Source: a virus (taxonomy: Duplodnaviria; Caudoviricetes). Taken from it: DNA of 32,606 nucleotides. The notes beneath the pieces were generated by a model. That model saw nothing but the letters and a program-made list of their open reading frames with translations. It ran no database searches and was not told the origin of the DNA. A program made the translations under genes and the position numbers. The stretch covers positions 1-32,606 of the IMG/VR virus record IMGVR_UViG_3300017914_001789; one strand, given 5' to 3'. This document shows positions 3,756 through 26,245 of the stretch, in pieces (position 1 is the stretch's first letter; each line of letters starts with the position of its first letter).

Positions 3756-4427
3756 TTACTTTACTAAATGATCGTTGACAATTTCAAATTTGTTCCAATC
3801 TGCATCCTGTAGAGCAACAGTATTCATGGACATTCTGTGTGTTACAGCATTAAATGCAATACTGTATCGGTCTTTATCTGTTAGGTTAGGTTCCACCATA
3901 TGCATCATTGCACTAGGAAATAGTAGCAAGGTTCCTGTTTTTGGATAAATCACATGATTTTCTCTGTGTTTAAATCCTGCTGGATGATCTGCAACTACTT
4001 TGTCATCAGTATCAATTGCTACAAAGGCACCTTCATCACCGTCTGCATGTACATAAAAGGCACCACTATACCAACATCCATTGTGTTTGTGTGGAGAGTT
4101 CCATGCACCCTTGTCGTTTATATTAGCCCATACATTACCCAATGACATACTTGCTTCCATGGGATTACATCCTATGAATGGGATGACTTCTTGATTTAAT
4201 TTGTCTTTAATTATGCGATGAAGCTTCGTCCAAGCAGGTCTTCTTTCAAATCCATCATCTGATTGCCAACCAGTGTATTGATTTGAAACCTTTCTACCTA
4301 CGGGGTCTTTTCTTCGAGCTGCATCCATATCGTCCTTTAAAGAACGTAGATACTTCTTCGTCACTAATCCTTCCTCTAGTAAGTCATATTCAAACAAGAA
4401 GGTAGGAAACAATAATCTAACTGACAT
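3756..4427 (-). CDS. Putative 2OG-Fe(II) oxygenase (TIGR02466-like)
   Basis: LFPT start, WANIN..GAWNSPHKH...SGAFY, P..GTLLLFPS..MHMVEPN...RYSIAFN. Confidence 0.85.
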   Translation of the reverse strand: MSVRLLFPTFLFEYDLLEEGLVTKKYLRSLKDDMDAARRKDPVGRKVSNQYTGWQSDDGFERRPAWTKLHRIIKDKLNQEVIPFIGCNPMEASMSLGNVWANINDKGAWNSPHKHNGCWYSGAFYVHADGDEGAFVAIDTDDKVVADHPAGFKHRENHVIYPKTGTLLLFPSAMMHMVEPNLTDKDRYSIAFNAVTHRMSMNTVALQDADWNKFEIVNDHLVK

Positions 4428-4428
4428 A

Positions 4429-5340
4429 TTAATCTCTATCTATTTTTTTAGACTCCGACCCGTCCCAATTTAAGTCTGTTTGACTTCTCTGTACATCGTT
4501 GAAGTCTTTATGAGCTGGACACTCAGGGGGTGGAACTTCTTCGGGAGAACTAAAAAACTTATGTTTTGGTTCCCACATTTTACTCTTCCTATACCCACCT
4601 ATGTTAACCATTTCGGGATTGATCTCTTTATGTTCTGTGTTCACTAATCCTAAATCTCTCTGCCATTTTTGCATACTATCGGGATTGATAGCATGATTTT
4701 CGTGCCATTGTTCAGCATCTGCATAATAGTATGTAGATGCCCACTTTTCTCTCTTGAAGGGAAACACTTGACATATGGGTGTTCCAGCTGGTATAATAAA
4801 TGAATGATCACATTTAGGATAAAAAATTATCTGTGCATTATCTAAATTCACATTGAAAGAATCCGTGTCGATGACACCTTGCCAACATGCAAAGTATTTA
4901 TTCTGAAAAAGAAACGGGTCTAAGAAAAGTACAGAATAATCTTTTGGTGTAATCATATTCCATGGTGATGATATCTTAAATGCATCTTTCACTGGGCCAT
5001 CTGAACCCATATACTCGATTGAATCTAACATCTGAGAAGCAGGATGTGATTGAGAGAATAATTGTGAAGTCTTTTCTGTACTAAACTTCTCACTATTATC
5101 GGGGAAGTTCCAATCCAATCCGTTTCTTATGGGTATATCCTGTGTTGCAACTATGTAATATCCCATAGTTAACCAGTCTTGCATTGCTGGACAGGAACGA
5201 ATAGTTTGTGCAATTCTTCCTCTATGATCTACTTTAACTTTCTCTTTCTTCCACCACTCAGGTTGATAATCTTTAGCTGCCACAGGTCTAAAGAATTCAA
5301 ATGCATCTTTTTGAAAGGTTCTAAATTCAATAGTCGGCAT
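4429..5340 (-). CDS. Conserved phage protein often found in oxygenase clusters (DUF6065-like, dUTPase-like fold suspected)
   Basis: PEWWK, TIRSCPAMQDWLTMGY, PWNMITPKDYSVLF, GVIDTD, IPAGTPICQVFPFKRE. Confidence 0.6.
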   Translation of the reverse strand: MPTIEFRTFQKDAFEFFRPVAAKDYQPEWWKKEKVKVDHRGRIAQTIRSCPAMQDWLTMGYYIVATQDIPIRNGLDWNFPDNSEKFSTEKTSQLFSQSHPASQMLDSIEYMGSDGPVKDAFKISSPWNMITPKDYSVLFLDPFLFQNKYFACWQGVIDTDSFNVNLDNAQIIFYPKCDHSFIIPAGTPICQVFPFKREKWASTYYYADAEQWHENHAINPDSMQKWQRDLGLVNTEHKEINPEMVNIGGYRKSKMWEPKHKFFSSPEEVPPPECPAHKDFNDVQRSQTDLNWDGSESKKIDRD

Positions 5341-6034
5341 ACTTATCTCTCTTATCGTGTAGTTCTACTTCATCACCTCGAATAACAATAGACTTCCTAT
5401 CTATATATCTTGCTGATTCATGTGGTGCTTCTGCACCGTGATTGATTCTTCCGTCAAACATTAGCAATCGATTAGGCACAAAGTCAACACTTCCAATTTC
5501 TAAATGATTCATCTCTTCTAAGATACCACCATTAACCATGTCACTGTAAAATCTTAATTTACCACCCCAGTTAGGATTCCACCATGTGTTAGGATAATAC
5601 AAGAAAGACAAATTCCACTCATCATCCATAGAACAATCTGAATGACATGTTCCATACTGCCCATGGGTTTGAGAATTCCCTCCAGCATATTGGAATCGAA
5701 CCCATCTAAAACCAAAGTCTGTTTGTAGTCTTCGGTTTAACCACCTGATTAAATGATTTGGATGACCATTTTTTCCACTTAAATATCCATCATTCTGATT
5801 AACACCTTGTATGAATGAACACCCCCATAACTGATGATTAGGTAATCCACCTCTACCATCATTAGGGTCACCATTCACTTGGTTAGTTTTTTGCCATGCA
5901 CAATTATATAAAAAAGTATTCACTGCTCTATGCAGTGAAGCTTCTAGATAATTGTCTATAACATAGATATTGTTACCTAGAGGCATTTCCGATATACGGA
6001 AAGGCTCATCTAGATAATGGATGTTTAAGTCCAT
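5327..6034 (-). CDS. 2OG-Fe(II) oxygenase, prolyl-hydroxylase-like
   Basis: HxD (CHSD), LYYPN.WW...WGGKLRF, PNRLLMFDGRINH, distal R (RKSIV). Confidence 0.85.
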   Translation of the reverse strand: MDLNIHYLDEPFRISEMPLGNNIYVIDNYLEASLHRAVNTFLYNCAWQKTNQVNGDPNDGRGGLPNHQLWGCSFIQGVNQNDGYLSGKNGHPNHLIRWLNRRLQTDFGFRWVRFQYAGGNSQTHGQYGTCHSDCSMDDEWNLSFLYYPNTWWNPNWGGKLRFYSDMVNGGILEEMNHLEIGSVDFVPNRLLMFDGRINHGAEAPHESARYIDRKSIVIRGDEVELHDKRDKYADY

Positions 6035-6586
6035 TTAGTTTTGATGTGATGTTGAAGGTGGTGGTAATTGCATTAGATAATCTTCTAGAGGACGAAGAGT
6101 ATCTTCTCTTGTAACAGCTATTTCTTGATATATACCCTCGGCCACAGATGCAATTGCATCTGCATATTCTAATGCTCTTCTTGCATTCGATCTATGAGGA
6201 TGTGCTGAACCTTCTCTTGCAGCAATCAATACTTCCACCATATCATCAAATCCGTATCTTTCACATTGTTGAAAGGTGTTGTTTCTAACAACTTCAGTAA
6301 TTCTATTTACGAATTGCTGGTTTAGACTAACACCCATAGGTGGTTCTGCATTAAGGATGTATGCTTCAACAGCGTCTTTTTCTGTTTCAGAAAGAGGAAG
6401 TCTTTCCTGTTCTTCTAAAGTTAGATTAGAATCCCACTTTTCAATTTTGCACTCGATCTCATCATAGATGAGTACATCATATTCAAATCCCAACTCAGGG
6501 GCATCAACACTTTCGTGTCTCCATTCTAACCCGTTTTCTTTTCTAATAAACAGGTTTCCAAATTCACAATAAACAAATGCATTCAT
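6035..6586 (-). CDS. Hypothetical protein (possibly tail-fibre-assembly-like)
   Basis: Acidic 183-aa ORF in the operon, abutting the next gene; no motif recognised with confidence. Confidence 0.6.
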   Translation of the reverse strand: MNAFVYCEFGNLFIRKENGLEWRHESVDAPELGFEYDVLIYDEIECKIEKWDSNLTLEEQERLPLSETEKDAVEAYILNAEPPMGVSLNQQFVNRITEVVRNNTFQQCERYGFDDMVEVLIAAREGSAHPHRSNARRALEYADAIASVAEGIYQEIAVTREDTLRPLEDYLMQLPPPSTSHQN

Positions 6587-6626: not shown

Positions 6627-8183
6627 CTATTTCATTCGTCTGTACTTATCATATGTGTCTAACATATTTATGTGGGAATAATTCATCCCTTCTATCCAAG
6701 GCCCACCCCTTGTATAGTGAACTGCATGATGTGTTTCTAATAGTTTTTCATCATACCCTTCAGTACAAATCTTATGGCCTGGAATCTCACTGATCTTGTC
6801 TGTCCATTCAAACTGATGTAGGTACTGACCACTAGCAGTATTTACAACTTCAGGTGTAAGTTTCCTACAGTCTTCATGACCGTTATTGAATATCATCATA
6901 CTTGACCATAATTTTTTCGGATATGCAACATTCTTTTGACCATCCATTTTAGTTTCTTCATGATTTTTAAAATCGTATTGTACACATGCTAAAGCATGAC
7001 TAGGGTCTAAAAAATAGAAGAGAGACATGGGATTTAGTTGCCACACATAGTCATCATCTATGAAGAAACTGAACCCCTCGTAATTTTCAAGGTAAGGTAT
7101 TAGAAATCTACTGTAGGTGAATTCAGTAGATTGATTTGCATATTCTCTATTATAATCCTTTAATTCAGCAATGTCAAGTTTTTTCACTTCCACTTTGTAG
7201 TCATTGAAGAATTCTGCACAAACCCCTCCCGACTTAGATTTTTCTATAGAATGATGAATAGATTTTTCTGCAGCTTCATATATACCTTTATGAGAAGAGT
7301 CGTAACCTAGATATATGTTTACAGGTTTCTTCTTACATAATTTAGTGACTCGTCTGTTGAATTCAAATACTTCCTCTCTAAAATCCATCCCAGCAACTGT
7401 CGATAATGACCACTCGAATTTTCCTTCTGAAACATAGATTGCAGATAGAGACCCTTCACCATTTCCTAGTTCTTTCCAATAATTTATCAACTCATCAAAT
7501 GTTAAAGCGGGAACATCTTTAAATGTATCTGCATAATCTGTCACTATAGTTTCAAAATCAGGATTGTCAATCGTCTCCATGACCTTACTTCTAATAGAGC
7601 CTGGGTGTATTGATAGAGAATATTCAAATCCAGTATTAGTATGTGTATGCCCTTGGATAGGATGTCTCATCCCTTCCTTTTGCATACTGTTCATTAACCA
7701 ATGACCTTTTGCAGCGTGATAGTAACAAGAAGATAACGAGTTCTCCTCTTGAGGATTCAACTGATTGCAATCTTCATGATCACTTACAGTGGATAACCAT
7801 TGATACTCTCCATCTGCATTCATGAAATCCATAGACCCACCACCGATAGGATGTCCTTCTCTTAACTTTTCTGTCCAACCATGATGAAGATATCTATGAT
7901 ATAGGATTGAATTGTGGTGCATTTGACCAAATGTGGTCAATCTCTTTTCATTTATAAGAGGTCGAATTTTACTCCATGGAACTAATTTTATATCAGGCAT
8001 TTCATTAAAGATATGTTCCCATATCTGTAATACAGTCTTTGCCTCATCTCTATCAAGAAATCTAAAATCCACTTGACCTAGATTGATTGCTGGTTCTCCC
8101 CTAGGTGGAGCTCCAGCAGTATCTAAGGACACTCTCCAAGTTCTACTGCGTGCTTGTTCTAAATTCTCAATCTTGTTTAACAT
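6627..8183 (-). CDS. Two-domain protein: unknown N-terminal domain plus C-terminal GT-A glycosyltransferase
   Basis: C-terminal half: IYLGYDS, QSTEFTYSRFLIPYL, FIDDD (DxD), KKLWSSMMIFN, YLHQFEW, HYTRGGPW. Confidence 0.8.
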   Translation of the reverse strand: MLNKIENLEQARSRTWRVSLDTAGAPPRGEPAINLGQVDFRFLDRDEAKTVLQIWEHIFNEMPDIKLVPWSKIRPLINEKRLTTFGQMHHNSILYHRYLHHGWTEKLREGHPIGGGSMDFMNADGEYQWLSTVSDHEDCNQLNPQEENSLSSCYYHAAKGHWLMNSMQKEGMRHPIQGHTHTNTGFEYSLSIHPGSIRSKVMETIDNPDFETIVTDYADTFKDVPALTFDELINYWKELGNGEGSLSAIYVSEGKFEWSLSTVAGMDFREEVFEFNRRVTKLCKKKPVNIYLGYDSSHKGIYEAAEKSIHHSIEKSKSGGVCAEFFNDYKVEVKKLDIAELKDYNREYANQSTEFTYSRFLIPYLENYEGFSFFIDDDYVWQLNPMSLFYFLDPSHALACVQYDFKNHEETKMDGQKNVAYPKKLWSSMMIFNNGHEDCRKLTPEVVNTASGQYLHQFEWTDKISEIPGHKICTEGYDEKLLETHHAVHYTRGGPWIEGMNYSHINMLDTYDKYRRMK

Positions 8184-8204: not shown

Positions 8205-9167
8205 TTATGAGGAAATCGGAGTTGCCGGCCACTGTTGGTTTACATCACCATCCCATCTTGCCTCAGGAGTTCTACCTTGTCTTGCATAAGTGAATGGAGA
8301 CCTATGTTGATAAGTAGATGGTTGTTGACCCTGTCTTGAGTATGTCGATGGACTTCTATACGAATAGGTATCAGGAGTTTGACCTTGTCGGGCATATGTA
8401 AACGGAGACCTATGATCGTATGTTACAGGTGTACCACCGATTGCTGGATATGTAAACGGAGACCTATGATCATAGGTAAACGGTGTCTGACTGTTCCTAA
8501 TATTAGGCTCTTGTTGATCTCTAATGTTAGGTTGCTGATTACTTCTGATATTAGGTTCTTGAGCAGACACAGGATTCTGATAGGTAAACGGTGATCTATG
8601 ATCATAAGTGAATGGTGTCTGATTGTTTCTGATATTAGGTTCTTGCTGATCTCTAATGTTAGGTTGCTGATTGTTTCTAATATTAGGTTCTTGTCCATTC
8701 ACAGGATTTCTATAGGTAAACGGTGACCTGTGATCATAGGTAAACGGTGTCTGACTGTTCCTAATGTTAGGTTGCTGATTGTTTCTAATATTAGGTTCTT
8801 GAGCACTTCTAATATTAGGTTCTTGAGCAGATACAGGGTTTCTATAGGTAAACGGAACCCTATGGTTATAGGTAAACGGTGATCTAAACGATGCTTGGTA
8901 AGTAAACGGTGACCTAAACGATACTTGGTAAGTAAACGGTGATCTAAACGCTACCTGATATGTAGACGGCTGTCTTGCATTCGCAGGATATGTAAACGGA
9001 TTCTGTGCATTATAGGTAAATGGACTCTGTCCATTTGCTGGATAAGTAAACGGATTCTGTGCGTTATAAGTAAACGGACTCTGACCGTTTGCTGGATAAG
9101 TAAACGGAGCCTGAAAAGTAAACGGAACAGGTTGTCTTGCTTGTCCGATGTAAGGTTGTTGTGCCAT
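8205..9167 (-). CDS. Pro/Gln/Tyr/Thr-rich repeat protein (zipper chain B), putative virion fibre
   Basis: Residues 5-300 are 36 Pro-initiated units of 6/8/10 aa (PFTYDHRS, PNIRxxQx, PVSAQE, PFTYARQGxx); GGAGG upstream. Confidence 0.8.
   Translation of the reverse strand: MAQQPYIGQARQPVPFTFQAPFTYPANGQSPFTYNAQNPFTYPANGQSPFTYNAQNPFTYPANARQPSTYQVAFRSPFTYQVSFRSPFTYQASFRSPFTYNHRVPFTYRNPVSAQEPNIRSAQEPNIRNNQQPNIRNSQTPFTYDHRSPFTYRNPVNGQEPNIRNNQQPNIRDQQEPNIRNNQTPFTYDHRSPFTYQNPVSAQEPNIRSNQQPNIRDQQEPNIRNSQTPFTYDHRSPFTYPAIGGTPVTYDHRSPFTYARQGQTPDTYSYRSPSTYSRQGQQPSTYQHRSPFTYARQGRTPEARWDGDVNQQWPATPISS
8268..9155 (-). repeat. Coding repeat tract, 888 nt (296 aa), including three 132-nt blocks
   Basis: Units parsed and counted manually from the translation. 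Confidence 0.85.
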
Positions 9168-9185
9168 CTTAAGTCATATCCTCCA

Positions 9186-10298
9186 TTATTTAGCTTGATA
9201 ACTCGGTGAACTGCCAGGCGGTGTGAACGGTGGCGGTATATAAACTGGAGTTCTTCCTTGATAAGTAAAAGGACTCTGATACGAAGCATTGTTAGGTTGT
9301 CTAGCAGGTGCTTGATATGTAAACGGTTGTCTTGCACTTGCAATAAACGGTTGTCTAGCAGGTGCTTGGTATGTAAATGGTTGCCTTGCACTTGCAATAA
9401 ACGGTTGTCTTGCTGGAGCCTGATATGTAAACGGTGTCTGAGCATTTGCTGGGTATGTCGCAGGTTGTTGTGCATTTGCTGGATATGTTGCAGGCTGTTG
9501 TGCGTTTGCTGGATATGTTGCAGGCTGTTGTCCATTCCTGATATTAGGTTGTTGTGCATTTACTGGATTTCTATAGGTAAACGGTGACCTATGATTATAG
9601 GTAAACGGTGATCTGTACTGATATGTTGACGGTGACCTAAACTGGTATGAAGCAGGCTGTCTTGCATCTCTAATGTTCGGTTCCTGTGCGCTTACTGGGT
9701 TCTGATAAGTAAACGGTGACCTATGTTGATACTCAGATGGTGATCTGTGATCATAAGTCAACGGTGATCTATGTTGATAAGTAGCAGGTTGCCTTGCATC
9801 TCTAATATTAGGTTCTTGAGCAGATACAGGGTTTCTATAGGTAAATGGAGACCTGTGTTGATACTCAGATGGTGATCTGTGATCGTAGGTTAACGGTGAC
9901 CTGTGTTGATACGTTGCAGGCTGTCTTGCATCTCTAATATTAGGTTCCTGAGCATTTGCAATATATGGATATGCATTTTGTTGATCTCTAATATTAGGTT
10001 CTTGAGCATTTGCAATGTAAGGATACGGGTTCTGTCTATCTCTAATATTAGGTTCTTGAGCATTTGCAATGTAAGGATACGGAGTCTGTGCATCTCTAAT
10101 ATTAGGTTGTTGTGCATCTGCAATATAAGGATAAGGTATTTGAGTTAATTCTTGACCTGATGCGTCATTCCACCCATCGGGTGTCTTGATGTAAATTTGA
10201 TCAACAGCTTTCCATGTTTGAGCTGCGGTCTTGACCCATGCACCCTGAGTTTTATTCCACCCATCAGGGGTTTTAACCTTCTGATTTCCTGACGCCAT
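9186..10298 (-). CDS. Pro/Gln/Tyr/Thr-rich repeat protein (zipper chain A) with an N-terminal Trp/Lys beta-repeat domain, putative virion fibre
   Basis: N-terminus KVKTPDGWNK..AWVKT...WKAVDQIYIKTPDGW; residues 55-350 are 36 repeat units; GAGGA upstream. Confidence 0.8.
   Translation of the reverse strand: MASGNQKVKTPDGWNKTQGAWVKTAAQTWKAVDQIYIKTPDGWNDASGQELTQIPYPYIADAQQPNIRDAQTPYPYIANAQEPNIRDRQNPYPYIANAQEPNIRDQQNAYPYIANAQEPNIRDARQPATYQHRSPLTYDHRSPSEYQHRSPFTYRNPVSAQEPNIRDARQPATYQHRSPLTYDHRSPSEYQHRSPFTYQNPVSAQEPNIRDARQPASYQFRSPSTYQYRSPFTYNHRSPFTYRNPVNAQQPNIRNGQQPATYPANAQQPATYPANAQQPATYPANAQTPFTYQAPARQPFIASARQPFTYQAPARQPFIASARQPFTYQAPARQPNNASYQSPFTYQGRTPVYIPPPFTPPGSSPSYQAK
9249..10136 (-). repeat. 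Coding repeat tract, 888 nt (296 aa), including three 132-nt blocks
   Basis: Units parsed and counted manually from the translation. Confidence 0.85.
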
Positions 10299-10318: not shown

Positions 10319-11836
10319 TTAAGAGTACAATATCCATAAATCTCCAACTGCACCATCTGATGATGTCGGAGCAGATGTGGATTGATATACATTTCTTGCA
10401 ACACCACCACTGTTAGATGCATGTGATGTTGTAATTTCATCTGCTCTAAAGTTTGCCTCAGTCAATGTTAATCCACCAGTCGAAGAACCTGTTGCAGTTG
10501 TCGTTGCAACTACGAATCTATCTGCACTTTCGTCCCAACCTATGAATCCATTGTCACCTGTTGAGCCTCTTTCTAAGATAAGACCTAGATCATTTGAGTT
10601 TGCACCTGAGTTACCTGAACCCAATTCGATTAATGCGTCTTCGATTGTTGTGTTTGTTGCACTGTTGGTTACAGTTGCACCATTTACTGTTAAGTTTCCT
10701 GAAAGTGTTAGATTTCCAAAAGTAACATTACTTGATGTTGAAACTGCCTGTCCAATACTTACTTCACCTGAACTGATTGAAACACCAGTTCCAGCACTGA
10801 TATGAGCTCTTACTTCTGAAGCACTAGGCCCTGTGTATGTAATTACACCTGTTGAATTATCATATGAAAGTGAACCATCTCCACCTGAATCTGTAACTGA
10901 GATTGCCTCTCTGGCATCTGAATCACCATATTGAGCAGAACCTGAAATTGTTAGGGCATTACCAGCATCATCATATGATAATGTAATACCTGTTCCAGCA
11001 GTCAATAAAGAATTAACTCTGTCATCGACTCTTTCGTTTGTAAAATATAAGTTTGATGAACCTTCTGATAAAGCATCTGTATCTGCAAGTACAGTTCCAC
11101 CTAGAGCAGTCGATGCTCCAGCAATTGTAATTGAACTGTTAGTTAATTTTGCATTTGTAATCGAACCAGCCAACATGTCGTTGGTAATACCACCTGATTT
11201 GACTCTCAATGAATCTGTGTTTGTCTCAATAGATGAATCGTCTACATTAATTGATAAAACACCACTTGAATGTGCAAGTCCGTCACCTGCTACTGAACTA
11301 TCTAATGAAAGTGTAACTGTTCCTGATGTGCCTCCACCTGAGAGACCATCTCCAGCAGTAACTCCTGCTATGTCTCCTGACTCGTCTCCAAGATGAACAG
11401 TGTTACCCATACCACTATGGTTTGCACACTTGAAGTACATTGTAGTCGGTGCTTCTTGGTCGAATGCAACATCTACATAAGCACCTGACGAACCTGCTGT
11501 ACCCACGGTATTATAGATCGTGTACCCATCTGACATGTTAGTACCGTCTGACGATTCAGAAAATTGTAGTGGGTGTGATGCGTTACTGCTATCTGATTGA
11601 TCGAATCTGTATACGACAGAAGGCATAAGTCTCAATGCTTGAGATGATGTCTGTCCGTCAAATAAGAATTTACCACCCGATACAGTTACCACAATTTTGT
11701 GGTGCATCGGTGCAGTCGTATTGTTTAATTGTTGAAAATCACCTAAAGCAGCTGCCGTTAGGTCACCTGAACTGTCAATAACTTCGGTTGTTCCTACCGT
11801 AAGACCGTTTTTGATTTTAAAATTCTGAGCTGACAC
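10319..11836 (-). CDS. Tail-fibre-like virion protein with a cupredoxin-like N-terminal domain
   Basis: Gly/Ser/Thr-rich fibre repeats (VTAGDGLSGGG, EGSSNLYFT); SHPLQFS...YFKCANHSGMG; ends STSAPTSSDGAVGDLWILYS. Confidence 0.75.
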   Translation of the reverse strand: MSAQNFKIKNGLTVGTTEVIDSSGDLTAAALGDFQQLNNTTAPMHHKIVVTVSGGKFLFDGQTSSQALRLMPSVVYRFDQSDSSNASHPLQFSESSDGTNMSDGYTIYNTVGTAGSSGAYVDVAFDQEAPTTMYFKCANHSGMGNTVHLGDESGDIAGVTAGDGLSGGGTSGTVTLSLDSSVAGDGLAHSSGVLSINVDDSSIETNTDSLRVKSGGITNDMLAGSITNAKLTNSSITIAGASTALGGTVLADTDALSEGSSNLYFTNERVDDRVNSLLTAGTGITLSYDDAGNALTISGSAQYGDSDAREAISVTDSGGDGSLSYDNSTGVITYTGPSASEVRAHISAGTGVSISSGEVSIGQAVSTSSNVTFGNLTLSGNLTVNGATVTNSATNTTIEDALIELGSGNSGANSNDLGLILERGSTGDNGFIGWDESADRFVVATTTATGSSTGGLTLTEANFRADEITTSHASNSGGVARNVYQSTSAPTSSDGAVGDLWILYS

Positions 11837-15240: not shown

Positions 15241-15248
15241 TATTTATA
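15241..15248 (-). promoter_or_regulatory. T4 late promoter consensus TATAAATA
   Basis: Exact consensus in the intergenic region upstream of the fibre gene. Confidence 0.8.
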
Positions 15249-16356: not shown

Positions 16357-17952
16357 TTATCCTTTTAAGAACTGTGCATTAGGCACTGACTGATGAATTT
16401 TTTCTACAGTTCCATCATCATTTGCATATATCTCTTGTGCTTTTCTCAAAGTTCCACCATCATTTACAAACACACCCTTGACCTTTGCAAGAGGGCCAAT
16501 CGGTCTAGTGGTAGAATAAGGTGTTTGATATACAAACGGTGATCTGTGATTGTAAGTAAACGGTGACCTATTCTGATATGTCTGAGGTTGTCTTGCATTT
16601 GCAATATAGGGTTGCTGTGCATTTACTGGATTACCATATGAGAACGGTGATCTATGTTGATAGATTATAGGTTGTCTTGCATTTGCAATGTATGGATACG
16701 GTTGTTGTGCATCACTTGGTTGTCTCGCATTTGCAATGTATGGGTACGGTTGCTGTGCGTTATACGGATTTGCTTCCTGAGCAGACACGGGATTCTGATA
16801 AGTAAATGGAGACTGATGATCATAAGTTCTTTGTGCAGTTCCTTGTCTTGCATAGGTAAACGGTGAAGGATGATCATAAGTTGTTTGTGCAGTCACCTGA
16901 ATAATCGTAGGTGTTCTTCCCTGTGCAGAACCCTGTGCAGTTGCAATTGCTTGTGCTGGAGTTCTTCCAGTTGCCTGAGTGGGTGTTCTTCCAGTTGCCT
17001 GAGTGGGTGTTCGTCCCTGTCTAGAATAATTTACCTGAGCCTGTGAAATAACGGGTTGTGTCACAGTAAACTGATAAGTTGTTACAGGTCTTTGTCCTGT
17101 TTTCTGAGTAGTATATGGGAAAGGACTTCTAAATGCACCAAGTGGGCCCAAATATGGTGAAATTACTGGTTGCTGACCTTGACTCTGACTAAAATATGGA
17201 TATGGTTGTTGACTAATAGACGTTACAAACTGTGCAACGGTCTGTTGATTCGAAGGTATAGGTGATCTATATGTACTTGGCCCATACTCATCAGAATCAT
17301 ATACAAGTTGCTGTCCTTGAGTAGTCGAAGGTATTCGGCCTGGATTCTGATACGGTTGTTGTCTCTGATACGGTTGCTGTGCTTGTGCAATAAACGGATA
17401 CGTTGTTTGTGTAATAAACGGATACGTTGTTTGTGTTATATACGGATACGGATTCTGATAACTTACCTGATATGCAAACGGATATGTAAACGGATACGGT
17501 TGTTGAGCATTAGTAGCAACTTGATAATTTATTTGCCCAATATTAGGTTCTTGAGCTTGTGCAATATACGGATAAGTATAAGGTTGCTGTCTGATAACAG
17601 GTTGTGAAGCATTTACAGGGTTTCTATATGTAAACGGACTCTGTTGTTGATAGGTAAACGGTGACCTACCCTGTCTTGCATAGGTAAAGGGATTCTGATA
17701 AGTGAACGGAGTTCTACCCTGTCTTGCATAGGTAAACGGAGACTGTTTACTTCTTATGTTTGGTTCTTGTGCGTTTACAATGTTTTGATATGTAAACGGT
17801 GACCTGTTCTGATAAGTAAATGGGGTCTGAGAGTTAGCAATATAAGGTTGCTGTATATCCCTTATGTTTGGTTCTTGACCATTTGCAGGCACTTGACCTT
17901 GGTACGGTTGTTGAAAAGTCGACCCTGTATTGATGTAGATTTCATCAGCCAT
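16357..17952 (-). CDS. Pro/Gln/Tyr/Thr-rich repeat protein with internal mirror architecture (hairpin zipper), putative virion fibre
   Basis: Same repeat vocabulary as the 370-aa and 320-aa proteins; C-terminal KVKGVFVNDGGTLRKAQEIYANDDG domain. Confidence 0.8.
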   Translation of the reverse strand: MADEIYINTGSTFQQPYQGQVPANGQEPNIRDIQQPYIANSQTPFTYQNRSPFTYQNIVNAQEPNIRSKQSPFTYARQGRTPFTYQNPFTYARQGRSPFTYQQQSPFTYRNPVNASQPVIRQQPYTYPYIAQAQEPNIGQINYQVATNAQQPYPFTYPFAYQVSYQNPYPYITQTTYPFITQTTYPFIAQAQQPYQRQQPYQNPGRIPSTTQGQQLVYDSDEYGPSTYRSPIPSNQQTVAQFVTSISQQPYPYFSQSQGQQPVISPYLGPLGAFRSPFPYTTQKTGQRPVTTYQFTVTQPVISQAQVNYSRQGRTPTQATGRTPTQATGRTPAQAIATAQGSAQGRTPTIIQVTAQTTYDHPSPFTYARQGTAQRTYDHQSPFTYQNPVSAQEANPYNAQQPYPYIANARQPSDAQQPYPYIANARQPIIYQHRSPFSYGNPVNAQQPYIANARQPQTYQNRSPFTYNHRSPFVYQTPYSTTRPIGPLAKVKGVFVNDGGTLRKAQEIYANDDGTVEKIHQSVPNAQFLKG

Positions 17953-17953
17953 A

Positions 17954-19204
17954 TCATACTACAAACCAAAGGTGACCAGTCGAAGTTGACCCAACACCAC
18001 TTGGTGCAGTAGATACAATCTCATAATCCAACTCGACATCATCACCATCGATTTTCACTCCATTTGAAGTATTTACACTAAACGAACCTGAACCACTCAA
18101 TGCTAAACCAGCACCACCACTCAAGTAACTCTGAACATCTGAGTCACCATATTGTGCAGCTGCAGAGAAAGCAAGTGTGTTCGTAGCATCATCATAAGTT
18201 ACTGTAATGTTACTATGTGTTGCAGACGTAATCATTACTGCAGCAGCGTCCTGTGCATCTTCATCTGTATAAGTTGCAGCTGCATTTTGGTTTTCCCAAT
18301 AATTACCTGTCCCATTCCATACTAAGACTTGTCCATTAGAAGGGGATGATGTCTGTACATCACTTAGTGAACTAAAATTGTGGTTAGTAATACTTGAAAC
18401 TGTACCTGTCAATGCACCAGTTGATGCATCCAATACTACTGAACCGTTATGTTTAACATCTCCTGTGACATCGCCAGTTATATCACCCGTGATATCACCA
18501 ACAAAATTTGTAGATGTTATAGATGAAAATCCTGTACCGACACCACCAGTAAATTGTGCAGTTCCATCTGAAATAATTGGGAACTGAACTTTCTTTCCAC
18601 TTGCAGTTGCAACGATATCATCTTCTGCAAAAGTTTTACCTGCTAGTTGTAATGTGTATCCTGACTCTAGTACGGTTGTTCTTGAGGAACTATCTCCATT
18701 TAGAATAACACCGTTAGAGTTAATGTTGTAAATTGTATTTGCAGCGGTCTCAGTAAATTGTCCTGTACTACTACCAGCACCACCACCGTCTCCTAATACG
18801 GAACCAGTAAATGTATAAATTGTGATGGTGTCACTTGCAGAAGCACCACTGTTAAGTGTGATACTACTTGCAACACCATTCGTTAATGTTCCAATAGTAA
18901 AGTCATCACCTTCAATTAAGTGATCTGCATTTTGGAAAACTTGGAATCGGCCTGGTCTGATTTTTACGGTCTTATTATCATTTTCATCAGTAGAATCAAA
19001 GACCGTTTGTGATGCAGTTGCAGTGAACGTAAATGAATCGAAATAGAAAGTTCTATTTTCCATTTCATTAATTGCATCGACTAAGTTATCATTGTTGTTG
19101 ATAGTCCCAGCAAGACCAGTAATAGTTCCAACGTCACCTGCTAGTGCGTTGTAATTATTTCTAAACTCTTCTAGTGTTTGATTTCTATTTACTGTTCTAG
19201 CCAT
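17954..19204 (-). CDS. Fibre/whisker-like virion protein
   Basis: N-terminal TLEEFR..YN...NLVDAINE, LSDV...PSNGQVLVWNG..W; ends STAPSGVGSTSTGHLWFVV. Confidence 0.7.
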   Translation of the reverse strand: MARTVNRNQTLEEFRNNYNALAGDVGTITGLAGTINNNDNLVDAINEMENRTFYFDSFTFTATASQTVFDSTDENDNKTVKIRPGRFQVFQNADHLIEGDDFTIGTLTNGVASSITLNSGASASDTITIYTFTGSVLGDGGGAGSSTGQFTETAANTIYNINSNGVILNGDSSSRTTVLESGYTLQLAGKTFAEDDIVATASGKKVQFPIISDGTAQFTGGVGTGFSSITSTNFVGDITGDITGDVTGDVKHNGSVVLDASTGALTGTVSSITNHNFSSLSDVQTSSPSNGQVLVWNGTGNYWENQNAAATYTDEDAQDAAAVMITSATHSNITVTYDDATNTLAFSAAAQYGDSDVQSYLSGGAGLALSGSGSFSVNTSNGVKIDGDDVELDYEIVSTAPSGVGSTSTGHLWFVV

Positions 19205-19400
19205 GGTTATTAATTAGTTCCTTTAATAGTCCTTTGATCTCTGTAACTTCTTGTCTTAAACTATTTATCTCTTCTCTCTGATTTCTTAATAATTGTCTTC
19301 TTCTCATAGTAAGACGATATTGCTCAACATCTGTATTGACGATTGCATGAGATTCTTCGTCTCTTATTAAATGTGCATGTCCTTCTACTTTGATACCCAT
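19197..19400 (-). CDS. Small conserved coiled-coil protein following the VrlC-like gene
   Basis: IKVEGHAHLIRD..SHAIVN..EINSLRQEVTEIKGLL. The start is more likely 19400 (TAATG overlap with the upstream stop) than 19418. Confidence 0.75.
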   Translation of the reverse strand: MGIKVEGHAHLIRDEESHAIVNTDVEQYRLTMRRRQLLRNQREEINSLRQEVTEIKGLLKELINNHG

Positions 19401-22400
19401 TATGCTAATGCCATACATCTAAGTGCAGACACCGCTGGTACTACACATGAGTTTTGTCCTTGTCCTACGATCTTAACCACAAATCCAGTGAATTCAGGGA
19501 GATCGTCTGCAGTATATTCATACTCTTTAAAGTTTCTCTGATCTGTTTCGATTGCTGTATCAGGTGAACCATCAGTATTGAAATATTCAAATCCGATATC
19601 ATCAAGTGGTGTGGTTTCATCTGCTTTAATTAGTTTGTACATAAACTTAAGATCAGTTGTAGGTGGTCTAAAGTTATCTGCAATAACTTTCAAACTTGTA
19701 GCAGGTGTTTTAAGGTTCACTTTTCTTGTAACATAAACCATTGCATTGTTGTCACCTTCAGGTTCAGTAGAAGCTGAATATGTAACTCCTGACGGCACAT
19801 CTCCACTACTGTTAATCTCATTGATTCTGTTTGCAATAGCAATACATCCTGTTGTACCCACATCAATAACAGGTGAAACTGTTACACTTGGTGTAAACAT
19901 TTGTAATAATAGTCTGAATGATTTTGTACTAGACATTTCATTCGTTTCATTGATACCTGAAGCAACGACGCCTGGGTTATCTAAGAATGAGTTATCATTC
20001 AAAGTGATGAAGTTATTCTGACTTCTTCTTTGATATGATGAATCACCTGTTGCAATATGTCCTTCAGGAGACTTCATTGCAGTAGATTCTGTACTTGCAA
20101 TAATTTTACCACCTGACCTTGCAATTGAAGGAATCATTGTATGCAATGTATCAAAATAATAGTTTCTAGACGATGTTACATCTTGGCCACCACCACTAGT
20201 TGTTTCTAATGCAGTGTAACCAGTCTTAAATTTATTGTTTCCAATATAACTTGATAAGTCAACAGTAACATCAAATGAGTCAATACCAATATTAGCTATT
20301 GCAGTGTAAGTTACTTCTGTGCTTCCACCAATTGCATCTACTGGAAGACCACCAAGAGTTTCACCGATTGATGCAATGGTAACTGTTAAATCATTTGAAC
20401 CACTTCCATCAGTTGCATTATCGAAATCTTCAAATGTAACTGTGTCGTTAGCTGCAAATCCTTGGCCTGGGTCTACTATTCTCACATCTGTAACTGCACC
20501 ACTTGCGATAGTTACATCAACTTTTAGACCAGTACCACTACCTGAAGTAGAGTCTTGAGTCCTTGATGTAAATGTACCATCTGTTGCAGCTGCAGACAAT
20601 GTAGGACTTGATAATGTGATTGCTGAACCAACTCTATCTCCAACGATACCTTTTATTTCTACATTCGAACTTGTATCGTACATACCATGCATGTAATTAG
20701 CAATCTTTACGTTTGCACTTGATGCTGTTGTTTGAATTGGATTTCTTGCAAGTTTAGGTTTATCGATTGCATCATTCTCAAAATATAGAGCTGCAGTTTT
20801 TGTTGTATCAAACTGTGCAATATTGAACTGGAACTTCAGATCATCCGTTTGTTCTGCAGTCCATGTTGATGCGTTTTGTGATAAGAATAAGGAACCTGCG
20901 TATGGTTGTCCTGAAATTGTTTCTCCAGTAATTAAATCTGCTTCACCCATTCTTGAAATAAAACACTCATAGTCGTTTGAGTTTGAATAAACTACAAAAC
21001 AGAACTCAGTATTTTCTTCTACAAAGACTGGTGAATCAAATGTAAAGGTTGTTTTTGCAGAAGCATCTTCTGAGATATTTACATCTTCAGGGTTTAATGT
21101 CTTCACTGAGAAAGGATATACAATTTGGCCTGGATATCCATTCACCATATTTCTAAGTTCTACTGAAACTGGCATGTGAGTTGACTTTGCTTGGAAGTAA
21201 AGATCGATACCTGTTACCATCATACCACCCTTAACTTCACACAAAATAGATTGTGCAAGTGGGTCACTCCAGTTAAAGTTTTCGGTGACATCCATAAATC
21301 CATCACCACCAATAAACATGTTAGGTATTCTAGGTGGTCTGAATGCATCTGTAGTGATTCTTAAATCAGGAACTTCAAACAAGAACATATTCCTTGGTTG
21401 TATATCAGGAATATCAGGAATCTCAAATATATCAGCTGCAATGTCAATTTCTTCAATAATTGCAACTTGCTCCTCTAGTAGTGGAGCATCTTCAAAGATT
21501 TCTTCAATTTCTACACTGACTTGAGTGGTAGGAATTATAGCTTCATTAGTAGTTCCAGCATCTGTTACTGTTTCAGTATCAGGGTTATCTACTGTAATTT
21601 CCTCTTCTTCAGGGGGTGGAGTTGTATCCACTGGAATTGGAGGTGCTTGTGTATCTATTTGACCGACATTGAGTCTTTCACCTCTTCTTGTATTTTGTCT
21701 AGTTGCAGTTGTTCTCTCTGTGATAACTCTACCATTTCGAGTAGACGTAATTTCTGTTTGACTAGACTGTAGCAAACCTTGTGCTTGGTAAATACCTCTT
21801 GCACCACTCGGAGGATTCGATAAATTATAGTATGAAGATGTAATCTTCAATTCTCTTTGACCTGTTGGGAATCTTTGTGTACTATCATTTGGTAACTCAA
21901 AGAAAGCTCTCAGTCTTCCGTTACCATCAGATTTTACATTATCAGACACAGTGAGACCACCACCAACTGAATAGTTAGTAGAGTGTGGTCTAATGTATTT
22001 GTCTACTCTAATTCCATCAAAGAAGAAGAAGTGGTTTGTGTTTGGTTTTAAATTAGTTGCATCAACCTCAATTGTCCTTGCTCTCATGAACGGAATAATT
22101 GATACTGATACTATTCTATCATTTCTTGTTTCTGTAAAGTCTTCTACTACAGAAGTTGTTACACCTGTTCTAGTTTGAATCTCAGGGGTCTCTGTAATAT
22201 CTCTAGTAATCTCTGTACCTGCTTGCCATGTACCCCCTTGAGTTGGGTCACCACTCCATGAACCACTAGAAGTAGATTGTACTTCTGTAGATACAACTGT
22301 TGGTGTGCCTGCCCAAGTTGTTTGCCAGTTATTCCAAACTGTACCTAATGAATTTCCAACTCCAGCAAGAACTGCATCAAAATTACCTTCTCTGTTTATT

Positions 22401-25400
22401 CTAACATCAGGTAATCTTTCTGAGTCATTCCAAATATCATTCTCAGGTGTTAATTTGACATTACCGATAAATGCAAAGACGTGATATGGGTTAACATTGA
22501 TATGTCTTGATGCTTTATTTTGGTCAACATATTTTGTTGTTGTGTATGGTAATGTAATTAGATCACCAGTTTTTTGATAGTTTTTTGATGTATTTGTATT
22601 CAATGATACATCAAAGAATTGTTGGAATGTCTGAGGTCTAAGCATACCCATTTCAGTATCGATAGAACACTTGTAATCAGGATGATTTACGTCACCAATT
22701 TTGTGACCTCTAAAGTTATCTACTAAGAATCCTGACTTGTATCTATCAAAACCATCTGCATCTAATATCTGAGCAGATTGGGTATCTTTCTCTAACAATG
22801 AGAGTGAAGTAATTCTTTCTAGATTGGTAACTCTGTTATTGATCTTACCAATATCCTTCATCGTATATCTACGATGGTCAAAACTTCTTACTCTTATTTT
22901 CTTTAAATCTTTAGTAAAAGCAGGGATGAACAATTCAAACATTTCAATTGCATCATCAATTGCTTTTGGTTTTGTAGGTGAGAGTGCTGGTGTACCAACT
23001 GCTACATCAAATCTACCATCACTTCTCAAGAAAATTTTATCAATTCTTGAAACGTAGAATCTGATATCACCTGTAGTTGAAATTGAAGGTACTGGAGTAT
23101 CTAATGCACTTGCTCCAGTTGATGCAAAGTCCTTACTATCATATGCAAACGGGTCATTACTTAAACCACTTGAAATATTTGCTGGATTAGTTGGGTCGGG
23201 TTGTGTTGTGGCAAAGTTTGCATCTGAATACAACTGACCTACACTTGGTCTAAAGTCTAGTGCATCTGATAATTCAAACTGACCATCAGGTTCTAGACCA
23301 CCAAGGTCTACTTTGTTTGGTGAGTATACAGGTATCTCATCATATTCGATACCACTATACGAATTTACATCATAGAATTGTCCACCACTTCCTGTGAAGT
23401 AATCGAACACTATGAGTATTGAATTGTTCGGTGAAGGTGCGCCAGGCTTCAATGTGATCTTAGAGTGATCATAGAAACCATCTCTCTGACCATCGTCAAA
23501 GAAATATCTATCAGTAATATTGTCACTACCTGTTGTTACTGTTCCTAATGTTGCAGTTGCATTTGACGTTTGACCAACTACTGATTCACCTTCATTGAAA
23601 GTGAAGTTATTAAGATAATAGAAATATGATGCAGCACCACCATTATACTTGATGATTCTTGCTCTTGCACCTGTAGTTTGTCCTACAATAATTTCATCGT
23701 TCTGAGGTGTGCCTGATGCAACGGTTAAAATTGCACTAGGAGGTAGAGGTGTAGAACCACCAATACCCTCATAAATTCCTCTAACTTTAAATACGTCTGC
23801 GACACCTAAAGAGATATCTTTATTATCGTAACATGTTCCATAATCCGATGCACCTGCTGAGTAAGCAGTATCAACGATTGCACATCTTGATCTTCTAAGT
23901 GTCTTGTCTCTGTTTACTGGAGAATCTAATTGTACTGCATATGATACAATAAAGTCTACTCCATCGGACACACTACCAACACTGAATGTATATCTTTCAG
24001 TTGTTGCAGTAGGTGAAGTTTTATTTGCACTTGAATTTGTTGGGTCAATCTCTGCACCCAATACATCACTACCACCTGAATTACCGTTTAAGTCAAAGAT
24101 GGAGATTTGGAAATTATCTCTAGATAGTTGTAGGAATTGTTCGTTGTTATCTGTATCAACAACAAGGTTACCACCTGAACAACTAATAATCTTTTGTTTT
24201 TTAACTGTTACTGTGTCGGGGGCATGTGAAACAACGTAGTCTCTTGGCCATGCATAGATAGCAGCTGCTTGTTCTTGATTGTAAATCTTTGTTCTTCTTC
24301 TAAAACAGTTAGCATTACTTAATGCACCAACACCACTTGTTGCAACTGTTTGAGCTGCAATATTACTTGTTATTGATGAGATAACTTGTTCGTTACCACT
24401 ACCATCAATAATGATGTCACCTTTCTTAAGTTCTGAAGTAAATCTTGTTCCAAAACCTGAAATCACACCAGCAGCTGTAATCGATACTGAGCCTGATAAT
24501 ACAAAGTCATCATCTGCAATCACATCTGCAGTAAAATCTGCGTGATCAGCATTTGATCTTTCTTGACCTATACCTCTAACTCTGTCGATGTTAAATGTTC
24601 TAACTTGGTTTGCAATACCTCTGAAATTTTCACCTACGATTGTACATGAGAAGTCACCATCACCTTCGGATGATACTGTCTCACCGTGAGCAAACTGTCC
24701 TACGACATCGTGAACATATATTGCATCTGAATCATTGTCGTATGCAACAATACCATGAGCTCCTGAAGTACCACCAACTAATCTATCTCCAGCATTTGCA
24801 GTCCCAGTGTGAGAACTGTAACCAATCTTTGTGAACATCTTGACATCAAAGAGATATAGGTTGATTCCATCTTCAGTGTCACCTGAAACATCATGTGCAT
24901 CTACATAACGAATTCTTGCAAAACCAATGTGATCATTTGAACCTAAACTTCCACCTGTTAGAGTGTCTTCAAATAATTGACATCTTGCATAAGGTACAAT
25001 TGATTGACTTCCTGATTCATTTCCGAAATCAGGGAAACCAAATAAGTTTTCTGCTTTAACATAGTTACCAAGTCTTGTCGGAGTTTTTGCACCTCTGATA
25101 GTTGATGTCGATCTGGCTTTTGCCATCGTAATATTGGTAGTTCCAATCTTATCGATCTCATAACCTTTAACGTATGCTTTACCTGGCGAGATGGAGAATA
25201 CAAATTTTTCTTTTTTACCACCCCTTGCCTTTGTATAGAAACCTGCGTTTGTTGTATCATCTAAATGTTCTCTCATACTATGAGTGAATTGTTGAACAAC
25301 AAAGTCACCTGATTGGTCAAATGTTCTTCTTGCAAGAGTGTGTTCTATCTCTGAATAGATAGGTCTAGTTACTTTATTTTCAATGACACCACCATTGACT

Positions 25401-26245
25401 CTTAATAGTTCAATAAAGTTTGCATCATCTGTATCTGATAATTCTATTTTTTTGAATACGAGATTATACTTGAATCTGTCAGCACCAGCTGCATTCTCGT
25501 TTGAAGTTCCCTGTGCATTATCGTAAAGAGATGTATCTTCAGCAGTCGAGATGATCTCTTCGTTAATTTGTAAACCAATTCTGTAAGATGGTTTTGGATT
25601 ATACTTTTCAAGAATTAAATCTTGAGCATCTACCTTTACAAAGAAACCTCTGACAAAGACTACACCTTCATTGATGTTTGCATAAGATGAACGACCAATT
25701 GGAACTTCTGATGCATCCTCTACTGTGAAATCGTTATTACTTGAAGAGTCTTCTGAAACAGTACCATTTTGATCAATACTACAAAGAACTAATGTCTCTC
25801 CAGCTTTGAATGAGAATGAATGTTTTGTGTCTGTGCCTTGTCTTTCGAATCTAACAAATAAAGTTAGTTTATCTGTTGATGTCTCTGCAGTGGAAGTGAT
25901 GACTTGACCAACAACACCTGTTGTTTGACCAACAATCATTTTTCCATGATAGGAAGTTCTGTAGTCTTCTACATTTGAATCACCTGAACTATTTGGATTT
26001 TCTGCTTTTACTTTTACGAAGTATAAATCAAAGTCGACATCAGATTGAGCTCCACTAACAATAGAACCCTCTTCAAAGAAGTGAGACCCTAATCTATCTA
26101 CCTGATTTTGTAAGATAGATTGTGTTTGTGTTAACTCTCTTGCCTGAAGTGGTCTTCCAGCTCTATAAAGAACTTTATGAAATTTCTTAGACTCCGAGTA
26201 GTCATCGTAATAGGGTGATATATTTAAATCAGTCTTCTCTGCCAT
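19400..26245 (-). CDS. Giant virion structural protein, VrlC / DUF4815-like
   Basis: DLNISPYYDDY, LQARELTQTQSILQNQ, LARRTFDQSGDF, RRYTMKDIG, RYKSGFLVDNF, DPLAQS, GSLFLSQNASTWTAEQTDDLKF. Confidence 0.88.
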   Translation of the reverse strand: MAEKTDLNISPYYDDYSESKKFHKVLYRAGRPLQARELTQTQSILQNQVDRLGSHFFEEGSIVSGAQSDVDFDLYFVKVKAENPNSSGDSNVEDYRTSYHGKMIVGQTTGVVGQVITSTAETSTDKLTLFVRFERQGTDTKHSFSFKAGETLVLCSIDQNGTVSEDSSSNNDFTVEDASEVPIGRSSYANINEGVVFVRGFFVKVDAQDLILEKYNPKPSYRIGLQINEEIISTAEDTSLYDNAQGTSNENAAGADRFKYNLVFKKIELSDTDDANFIELLRVNGGVIENKVTRPIYSEIEHTLARRTFDQSGDFVVQQFTHSMREHLDDTTNAGFYTKARGGKKEKFVFSISPGKAYVKGYEIDKIGTTNITMAKARSTSTIRGAKTPTRLGNYVKAENLFGFPDFGNESGSQSIVPYARCQLFEDTLTGGSLGSNDHIGFARIRYVDAHDVSGDTEDGINLYLFDVKMFTKIGYSSHTGTANAGDRLVGGTSGAHGIVAYDNDSDAIYVHDVVGQFAHGETVSSEGDGDFSCTIVGENFRGIANQVRTFNIDRVRGIGQERSNADHADFTADVIADDDFVLSGSVSITAAGVISGFGTRFTSELKKGDIIIDGSGNEQVISSITSNIAAQTVATSGVGALSNANCFRRRTKIYNQEQAAAIYAWPRDYVVSHAPDTVTVKKQKIISCSGGNLVVDTDNNEQFLQLSRDNFQISIFDLNGNSGGSDVLGAEIDPTNSSANKTSPTATTERYTFSVGSVSDGVDFIVSYAVQLDSPVNRDKTLRRSRCAIVDTAYSAGASDYGTCYDNKDISLGVADVFKVRGIYEGIGGSTPLPPSAILTVASGTPQNDEIIVGQTTGARARIIKYNGGAASYFYYLNNFTFNEGESVVGQTSNATATLGTVTTGSDNITDRYFFDDGQRDGFYDHSKITLKPGAPSPNNSILIVFDYFTGSGGQFYDVNSYSGIEYDEIPVYSPNKVDLGGLEPDGQFELSDALDFRPSVGQLYSDANFATTQPDPTNPANISSGLSNDPFAYDSKDFASTGASALDTPVPSISTTGDIRFYVSRIDKIFLRSDGRFDVAVGTPALSPTKPKAIDDAIEMFELFIPAFTKDLKKIRVRSFDHRRYTMKDIGKINNRVTNLERITSLSLLEKDTQSAQILDADGFDRYKSGFLVDNFRGHKIGDVNHPDYKCSIDTEMGMLRPQTFQQFFDVSLNTNTSKNYQKTGDLITLPYTTTKYVDQNKASRHINVNPYHVFAFIGNVKLTPENDIWNDSERLPDVRINREGNFDAVLAGVGNSLGTVWNNWQTTWAGTPTVVSTEVQSTSSGSWSGDPTQGGTWQAGTEITRDITETPEIQTRTGVTTSVVEDFTETRNDRIVSVSIIPFMRARTIEVDATNLKPNTNHFFFFDGIRVDKYIRPHSTNYSVGGGLTVSDNVKSDGNGRLRAFFELPNDSTQRFPTGQRELKITSSYYNLSNPPSGARGIYQAQGLLQSSQTEITSTRNGRVITERTTATRQNTRRGERLNVGQIDTQAPPIPVDTTPPPEEEEITVDNPDTETVTDAGTTNEAIIPTTQVSVEIEEIFEDAPLLEEQVAIIEEIDIAADIFEIPDIPDIQPRNMFLFEVPDLRITTDAFRPPRIPNMFIGGDGFMDVTENFNWSDPLAQSILCEVKGGMMVTGIDLYFQAKSTHMPVSVELRNMVNGYPGQIVYPFSVKTLNPEDVNISEDASAKTTFTFDSPVFVEENTEFCFVVYSNSNDYECFISRMGEADLITGETISGQPYAGSLFLSQNASTWTAEQTDDLKFQFNIAQFDTTKTAALYFENDAIDKPKLARNPIQTTASSANVKIANYMHGMYDTSSNVEIKGIVGDRVGSAITLSSPTLSAAATDGTFTSRTQDSTSGSGTGLKVDVTIASGAVTDVRIVDPGQGFAANDTVTFEDFDNATDGSGSNDLTVTIASIGETLGGLPVDAIGGSTEVTYTAIANIGIDSFDVTVDLSSYIGNNKFKTGYTALETTSGGGQDVTSSRNYYFDTLHTMIPSIARSGGKIIASTESTAMKSPEGHIATGDSSYQRRSQNNFITLNDNSFLDNPGVVASGINETNEMSSTKSFRLLLQMFTPSVTVSPVIDVGTTGCIAIANRINEINSSGDVPSGVTYSASTEPEGDNNAMVYVTRKVNLKTPATSLKVIADNFRPPTTDLKFMYKLIKADETTPLDDIGFEYFNTDGSPDTAIETDQRNFKEYEYTADDLPEFTGFVVKIVGQGQNSCVVPAVSALRCMALA

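Follow-up and report, generated by a model that had tools for sequence, protein, structure and literature searches.

Two adjacent genes of an uncultured marine T4-like myovirus, here called A and B, encode repeat tracts that mirror each other unit by unit when one protein is read from its N-terminus and the other from its C-terminus. This mirror code is real and is under joint constraint in both genes. Judging from sequence comparisons, we consider it probable (about 0.7) that A and B form a head-to-tail, two-chain antiparallel beta-ribbon fibre in which residue i of A would lie against residue 354−i of B. With somewhat less confidence, but as more likely than not, we regard the pair as a natural protein duplex. 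A modular code of complements (4–10-residue units with defined partners) would keep two separate chains in register over as many as 540 residues, giving a length-programmable fibre that caps a trimeric fibre, undergoes compensatory insertions like an RNA helix and also occurs as a one-chain hairpin.

The mirror match and its genomic setting

The window, that is the whole 32,606-nt stretch analysed, covers the tail and neck region of the phage. Its genes all lie on the (−) strand, in a run of baseplate wedge, a 2281-aa DUF4815 protein, fibre-like genes, gp13, gp14, gp15 and the small terminase (Table 1). The window gp15 shares no more than about 40% identity with the best phage records listed, mostly marine cyanophages, and the sequencing runs closest to the window are seawater metagenomes; no RNA dataset was found among the listed holders of the window sequence. 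Contigs from two independent seawater runs of different studies (X1 and X2) match the window with 0–1 differences per piece. The X1 piece 8823–9830 crosses the A/B junction, and the whole stretch is not covered by any single piece.

Table 1. Features of the window discussed in the text
Feature	Position	Strand	Remarks
Gene A, 370 aa	9186..10298	(−)	Head, putative outgoing zipper strand and short Pro/Gly tail; GAGG (Shine-Dalgarno-like) upstream
A head, residues 1–54	10137..10298	(−)	Three predicted VKTPxGW-like hairpins; putative pseudo-threefold anchor
A repeat tract, residues 55–350, 36 units	9249..10136	(−)	Prolines all on one parity
Gene B, 320 aa	8205..9167	(−)	Putative returning zipper strand and conserved C-terminal WDG...WP motif; GGAGG upstream
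B repeat tract, residues 5–300	8268..9155	(−)	Mirror complement of A tract
B C-terminal motif, residues 301–320	8208..8267	(−)	At head end of register
Tail-fibre-like gene directly upstream of A	10319..11836	(−)	PHROG tail fibre and structural matches; ends in STSAPxxxxGxxGDLWILYS tip motif; putative docking site
Gene C, 531 aa, single-chain paralogue	16357..17952	(−)	Residues 18–172 complement 326–480; C-terminal double-hairpin anchor
Second fibre-like gene directly upstream of C	17954..19204	(−)	Ends in related STAPSGVGSTSTGHLWFVV motif
DUF4815 gene, presumably VrlC-like	19400-26245	(−)	Borders host recognition cluster

Neither A nor B has a Pfam or PHROG match. The same holds for the gene directly upstream of C, so that its fibre label rests on position and motif. 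After the A/B pair comes a gene of 518 aa whose C-terminal half is glycosyltransferase-like (6627–8183, (−) strand), a type of gene found downstream of the pair in 14/14 A/B loci listed; beyond it (3756–6586, (−) strand) lie an unknown gene and 2OG-Fe(II) oxygenase genes. The oxygenases and the glycosyltransferase-like protein could hydroxylate or glycosylate the Pro/Tyr/Thr-rich ribbon. Open frames in other frames overlap A and B (8423–8698, 8951–9559 and 9890–10123, all (−) strand) and are likely a by-product of repeat codon usage. The sequence TATAAATA, which we take to be a T4-type late promoter motif, occurs on the minus strand at window positions 15248, 27754 and 27765, the copy at 15248 lying upstream of the run of genes leading down to A and B.

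The first-pass annotation had described the two tracts as equally long and mirrored in their order of units. Both are indeed 296 aa long, and the 36 unit lengths of A agree 36/36 with those of B taken in reverse, in a parse where the first two B units were split by hand (8+8), one A unit begins with Ala and the B unit PFTYPAIGGT is atypical. All the unit pairings claimed are present: PNIRxxQx with PxxYx(H/Y/F)RS, PYPYIANAQE with PFTYARQGxx-type units, PFTYxN with PVxAQE, PATYPANAQx with PxTYQxxFRS, PFTYQAPARQ with PFTYPANxxx, and PFIASARQ with PFTYNAQN. The same parse recovers the 44-aa block HHH-F-V-N of A opposite NNN-V-F-H of B. The tract DNA is not reverse-complementary, as had also been stated: identity at the mirror register is 36.7%, and the longest minus-strand BLAST piece among the top A/B-tract matches is 16 nt.

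When the order of units was shuffled, the best of 200,000 shuffles reached 27/36 matched lengths, against the 36/36 observed. Parallel unit order matches 28/36 lengths, so that unit lengths alone overstate the mirror case. Residue-level mutual information is a stronger test: it amounts to 1.92 bits at i+j=354, whereas antiparallel registers average 0.93 (SD 0.15) and the best parallel register reaches 1.21 bits.

Homologous pairs: register, specificity and indels

Homologous loci were gathered through their similarity to one side only, either A (77 viral loci) or a B alignment (79 loci from metagenomes and 4 from genomes); complementarity was never a criterion for fetching them. A residue-pair score was trained on the window pair only and then applied to the homologous pairs. 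The viral set comprises 34 distinct pairs in 15 clusters, training pair included (33 held out). The cognate partner scored above all other-cluster partners in both directions in 34/34 cases, cognate scores ranging from 225 to 862 versus 10–20 for parallel controls, and 30/34 pairs lie in one ungapped antiparallel register. The register is head-anchored, its sum K being the length of B plus 34 or 35. Homomeric assembly, which the first-pass annotation had named as a contrary outcome, is not favoured by the score, A–A and B–B falling below A–B in 34/34 pairs.

Another 83 loci gave 52 complete pairs, 3 C-type loci and 28 that were incomplete or missed by the search pattern. They contributed 39 new distinct rows, reduced to 38 by removal of L115 (one ORF counted twice). 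Here the cognate partner was best in 38/38 and the full register was kept in 36/38; six more pairs were recovered by hand, five of them in register. In total, 71 of the 78 distinct pairs keep one ungapped antiparallel register spanning 161–537 residues, with the reservation that the pairs are related (32 clusters) and the counts overstate independence. By a measure free of any trained matrix, a proline mirror of at least 0.75 was obtained for 74/78 cognate, 298/11,328 non-cognate and 12/15,600 shuffled pairs. This measure ranks the cognate strictly best in only 60/78; related clusters and short B chains produce ties. Tract lengths of A and B correlate at only rho 0.72 over 32 cluster representatives, a value lowered by members in which the pattern used to locate tract ends failed. 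The window-trained code is weak on divergent members (L071 and L072 score 50–59, L077 29). At the level of sequence, the antiparallel in-register reading of the first-pass annotation appears to hold: the mirror register is kept as length changes, and shuffled, parallel and non-cognate controls are far lower.

Variation among the loci extends to gene order and vocabulary. The order is B then A in L041, L043, L060, L063, L064, L067 and L158, with the same register where both genes are complete. Other unit vocabularies with the same anchors, of Gly/Thr-rich QGSTQ/GNTR types or RRRPV/YHNR types, occur in L159:496-4392, P0247, P0248, P0251, P0258 and P0278, which suggests further pairing codes; L159 scores best with its own cognate (153 vs 55). 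A and B are separated by about 300–530 nt in L011, L021, L030, L037 and L062, in most cases with a non-Hint domain at the end of A, and this gap may hold a small gene. Four matches in bacterial MAG contigs (L157–L160) have the same phage-like neighbourhood; they are likely mis-binned phage DNA and thus no evidence of a host.

The first-pass annotation had also supposed that gains and losses of units would co-vary between the genes. Among 16 sister comparisons (3 of them without indels and 5 involving mismatched alleles), all 8 diverged ones with tract indels are balanced in the sense that net size is equal in A and B. L001 and L034, for example, differ by +62, +14 and −16 in both genes, and the window and L016 by +18 and +20 in both. 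To this extent the supposition stands; it fails in 6/78 pairs (L006, L008, L010, L052, L084 and L146), which carry one-sided indels of 18–88 aa in alleles that otherwise differ by at most about 1% from the matched sibling gene. Five of the six one-sided junctions sit in perfect repeats of 43–131 nt and could reflect either misassembly or genuine slippage. The sixth, L146:951-2495, in which A lacks 46 aa relative to L143, has a junction repeat of only 2 nt that does not explain it, and is a candidate for a real out-of-register allele. In L149, A stops early at 285 aa and is in register until the stop.

Mosaic ORFs, in which the start of one repeat gene type (A, B or C) is fused to the end of another, were seen at L115:777-2165, L117:2333-3790, L128:404-1405, L138:771-1592 and P0103. 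They are either assembly chimeras or true recombinants, were left out of all counts, and show by their existence that the repeats undergo scrambling, whether during assembly or naturally. L115 was considered as a natural A–B fusion and rejected, its middle not being self-complementary and its ends being 97% and 99.6% identical to known A/B genes.

Proposed pairing geometry, putative anchor and rival explanations

In the 30 in-register pairs, the prolines of each A protein share a single parity (1213/1213), and 1081 of them face a B proline at K+2. The common pairs at K are Pro-Gln, Pro-Arg, Asn-Thr and Ile-Gln on the proline parity, and Ala-Phe, Arg-Tyr, Ala-Tyr, Glu-Ser, His-Asn and Val-Tyr on the other. 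Regression over register-aligned windows of 66 pairs, which are redundant so that only the ranking of offsets is meaningful, gave cross-chain couplings of 0.18 bits at K−2 and 0.14 at K for proline-parity sites, and of 0.44 bits at K and 0.24 at K+2 for the other sites. Odd offsets stayed at or below 0.09 bits, and no strong couplings were found beyond K±2 in these 66 pairs. Proline has no amide NH and must occupy non-hydrogen-bonded sites. In twisted hairpins, non-hydrogen-bonded sites show the diagonal two below the lateral sum, as in Tyr2-Lys9 beside Glu4-Lys9 (excerpts of PMC10096425). Parity, coupling pattern and proline chemistry thus fit a two-stranded antiparallel ribbon with K as direct register: there is a two-residue periodicity with Pro in one site class, and lateral and diagonal couplings fall at even offsets. 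The direct register is likely i+j=354 (Ala-Phe, Arg-Tyr, Ala-Tyr, Pro-Gln/Arg). A direct register with Pro opposite Pro (i+j=356) was rejected, that offset being almost without coupling at proline-parity sites. The length of roughly 100 nm given at first pass agrees with 296 residues at about 3.3 Å each, which would yield at most about 98 nm and less if the ribbon coils. AlphaFold2 did not fold the arms, either in C (mean pLDDT 38.8) or in L115 with an alignment of the A N-terminus (38.4).

The A head is nearly invariant in alignments, contains three internal repeats and is modelled as three Trp-tipped hairpins (low-confidence AlphaFold2 of a homologous head, pLDDT 40–68). A gene ending in the tip motif S/T-x-A-P...G-D/H-L-W lies upstream in 111/112 A loci with upstream DNA. 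The same pattern is found upstream in 14/20 C loci, two of the misses having the motif with a longer spacer. From its PHROG tail-fibre matches, the gene upstream of A likely encodes a trimer. The conserved Trp motif at the C-terminus of B sits at the head end, and a 1:1 stoichiometry (one A and one B) on the trimeric tip appears likely rather than 3:3. At the other end, 71 A C-termini sorted by rough patterns comprise 15 with a Hint-like domain, 19 with another domain of more than 90 aa and 37 with a short tail, the window included. The Hint domain was seen only in relatives (precomputed Pfam, L014 just below the cut-off), with no Pfam match to it in A, B or C of the window.

Gene C uses the same units as A and B within a single chain and is self-complementary at K=498. 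Its centre (about 176–320) is repeat-like but unmatched by the code, and may be a differently folded distal tip or follow other pairing rules. In relatives C is split into two adjacent complementary genes, with scores of 253–384 at eight loci and 50–78 at three. Among 28 single-chain or near-complete C proteins, 18 have a proline mirror at p<0.05 and 10 have no significant mirror; in distant members the two arms are separated by a large insert of globular appearance. A profile search of 1.84 billion representatives returned 185 proteins at E<=0.001, the lowest ones compositional. AlphaFold2 placed only the arm strands 23–26 and 472–475 of C, which sum to 498 (pLDDT about 45), and gave its C-terminal anchor a pLDDT of 70–77. 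C would run out and back, and may supply one N-terminal and two C-terminal hairpins as its anchor. Homology between the A and C heads is weak (HHalign probabilities 18% and 3%), and fold searches with the C anchor gave matches of about 32 columns to uncharacterised phage proteins, which are leads only.

On the reading we prefer, a twisted two-stranded ribbon of up to about 100 nm would hang from the trimeric fibre tip as a thin spacer. The prolines would take the non-hydrogen-bonded sites and so block sheet growth and odd-step sliding. The remaining sites would carry large-against-small pairs (Phe/Tyr with Ala, Gly or Val; Tyr-Arg; His-Asn; Glu/Gln-Ser), such that each unit would fit only its own complement and the register would be fixed. 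The three-hairpin A head and the C-terminal motif of B would cap the threefold tip in a 3:1:1 ratio. Fibre length would be tuned as both genes gain or lose matching blocks; after a change on one side only, a bulge would persist until the partner had compensated. In many relatives the ribbon would project a distal adhesin-like or self-cleaving domain; the distal end of the window pair is only a short tail, so that there the ribbon itself would be the contact surface.

The same antiparallel code could also be used in a bundle of three A–B ribbons forming a six-stranded needle (3:3), as in the T4 gp37 tip. Such a needle needs the identical mirror register, its exposed aromatics and Arg could pack between ribbons, and the upstream gene likely makes a trimer. 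We nevertheless find it unlikely: the three internal hairpin repeats of the head suit one copy per trimer, gp38 offers the precedent of three Trp in three gp37 pockets (excerpts of PMC6851490), Pro at about a quarter of alternate sites disfavours barrel closure, and A and B have neither an HxH metal motif nor strong couplings beyond the neighbouring even offsets. Less probable still is an antiparallel arrangement in which B is a transient chaperone or ruler for A, or in which the geometry is not beta (intertwined polyproline-like strands), even though chaperones are often encoded beside phage fibres (excerpts of PMC12032242), the tracts contain about 15% Pro and the modelled arms have no beta structure. 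C holds both arms in one chain with its anchor at the C-terminus, so that the returning arm is structural there; the conserved Trp motif likewise ends B at the head end, and the three-residue period of polyproline II does not fit the strict two-residue parity.

Strongly disfavoured is the view that the chains do not physically pair and that the mirror arose incidentally, through DNA inversion, gene conversion, assembly or a limited vocabulary of repeats. The A and B repeat DNA is alike in direct orientation (70% over 383 nt), unit lengths also match well in parallel and the mosaic ORFs testify to scrambling. However, the tracts are not reverse-complementary and matched units differ in sequence; direct-repeat processes would make the tracts similar in parallel rather than in mirror order; diverged pairs show both cognate specificity and balanced indels; and independent runs give the window sequence, in pieces.

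Significance and comparison with known systems

The two-chain ribbon, if true, would give widespread marine T4-like phages a fibre architecture that is new, and would be a naturally occurring example of protein–protein complementarity that can be read over hundreds of residues. The unit dictionary leads to direct predictions for short synthetic peptides, so that the specificity of beta-strand pairing and the control of register, which are usually difficult to predict, become testable. Protein duplexes that are orthogonal and tunable in length would also become available for design, and natural populations would allow compensatory indels in a pair of genes to be traced. The first-pass annotation knew of no described phage fibre of this kind, and the mostly non-subscription full texts searched yielded no description of such a pair and no precedent for such a residue pairing code. 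Sequence searches gave no PDB match for A or C and no cultured-phage record for A, C or the A head (BLAST low-complexity filter on). Fold searches of BFVD, PDB and VIA-wide with low-confidence models gave none at E<=0.001 or Z>=2, and the tip motif and the C anchor, compared by sequence with PDB, gave unrelated matches only. A partial Cementoin label in the ESM Atlas was rejected as compositional, the other matches being unnamed viral clusters.

In pelagimyophages and cyanomyophages, the variable host recognition cluster extends from a VrlC-like gene to the neck genes, beside a glycosyltransferase (excerpts of PMC7029224). A, B and C likewise lie between the presumed VrlC-like gene and gp13/gp14, beside a glycosyltransferase-like gene, but those excerpts mention no mirror-repeat pair. 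The proposed ribbon resembles the fibres of flagellotropic phages (7-7-1 capsid, Chi/YSD1 tail) in being thin, flexible and of similar length, with no sequence link or sign of flagellum binding here; 7-7-1 capsid fibres measure 88–114 nm, and their structure is stated as unknown (excerpts of PMC12796354). In T4, a gp37 homotrimer makes up the long tail fibre's tip (excerpts of PMC6851490 and PMC12032242), and in phage S16 the gp38 adhesin (PDB 6F45) caps the trimeric gp37 tip as a single unit by means of three Trp-bearing elements (PMC6851490, in part). Gene A, as in gp38, lies directly downstream of a fibre gene in 111/112 loci. No homology between A and gp38 was detected, and gp38 has three helices and a compact beta-helix/polyglycine body, whereas A has three predicted hairpins and would carry a very long two-chain stalk.

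The gp37 needle is six-stranded and iron-bound, about 15 nm long, with HxH metal-binding motifs along its shaft. It shares with the proposed ribbon long antiparallel out-and-back strands that carry a tip, in a topology like that proposed for the single-chain C. Unlike gp37, the ribbon would be made of two gene products with 161–537 residues per strand and proline-punctuated units that obey a complement code; A and B have a single His in their HRS units instead of HxH, share no sequence match with gp37 and gave empty fold searches with low-confidence models. In tandem beta-zippers, bacterial fibronectin-binding repeats line up on fibronectin modules in antiparallel fashion, unit by unit. There, one partner consists of folded domains, whereas in A and B both partners would be extended strands that share one vocabulary and in which the order of units can vary on both sides.
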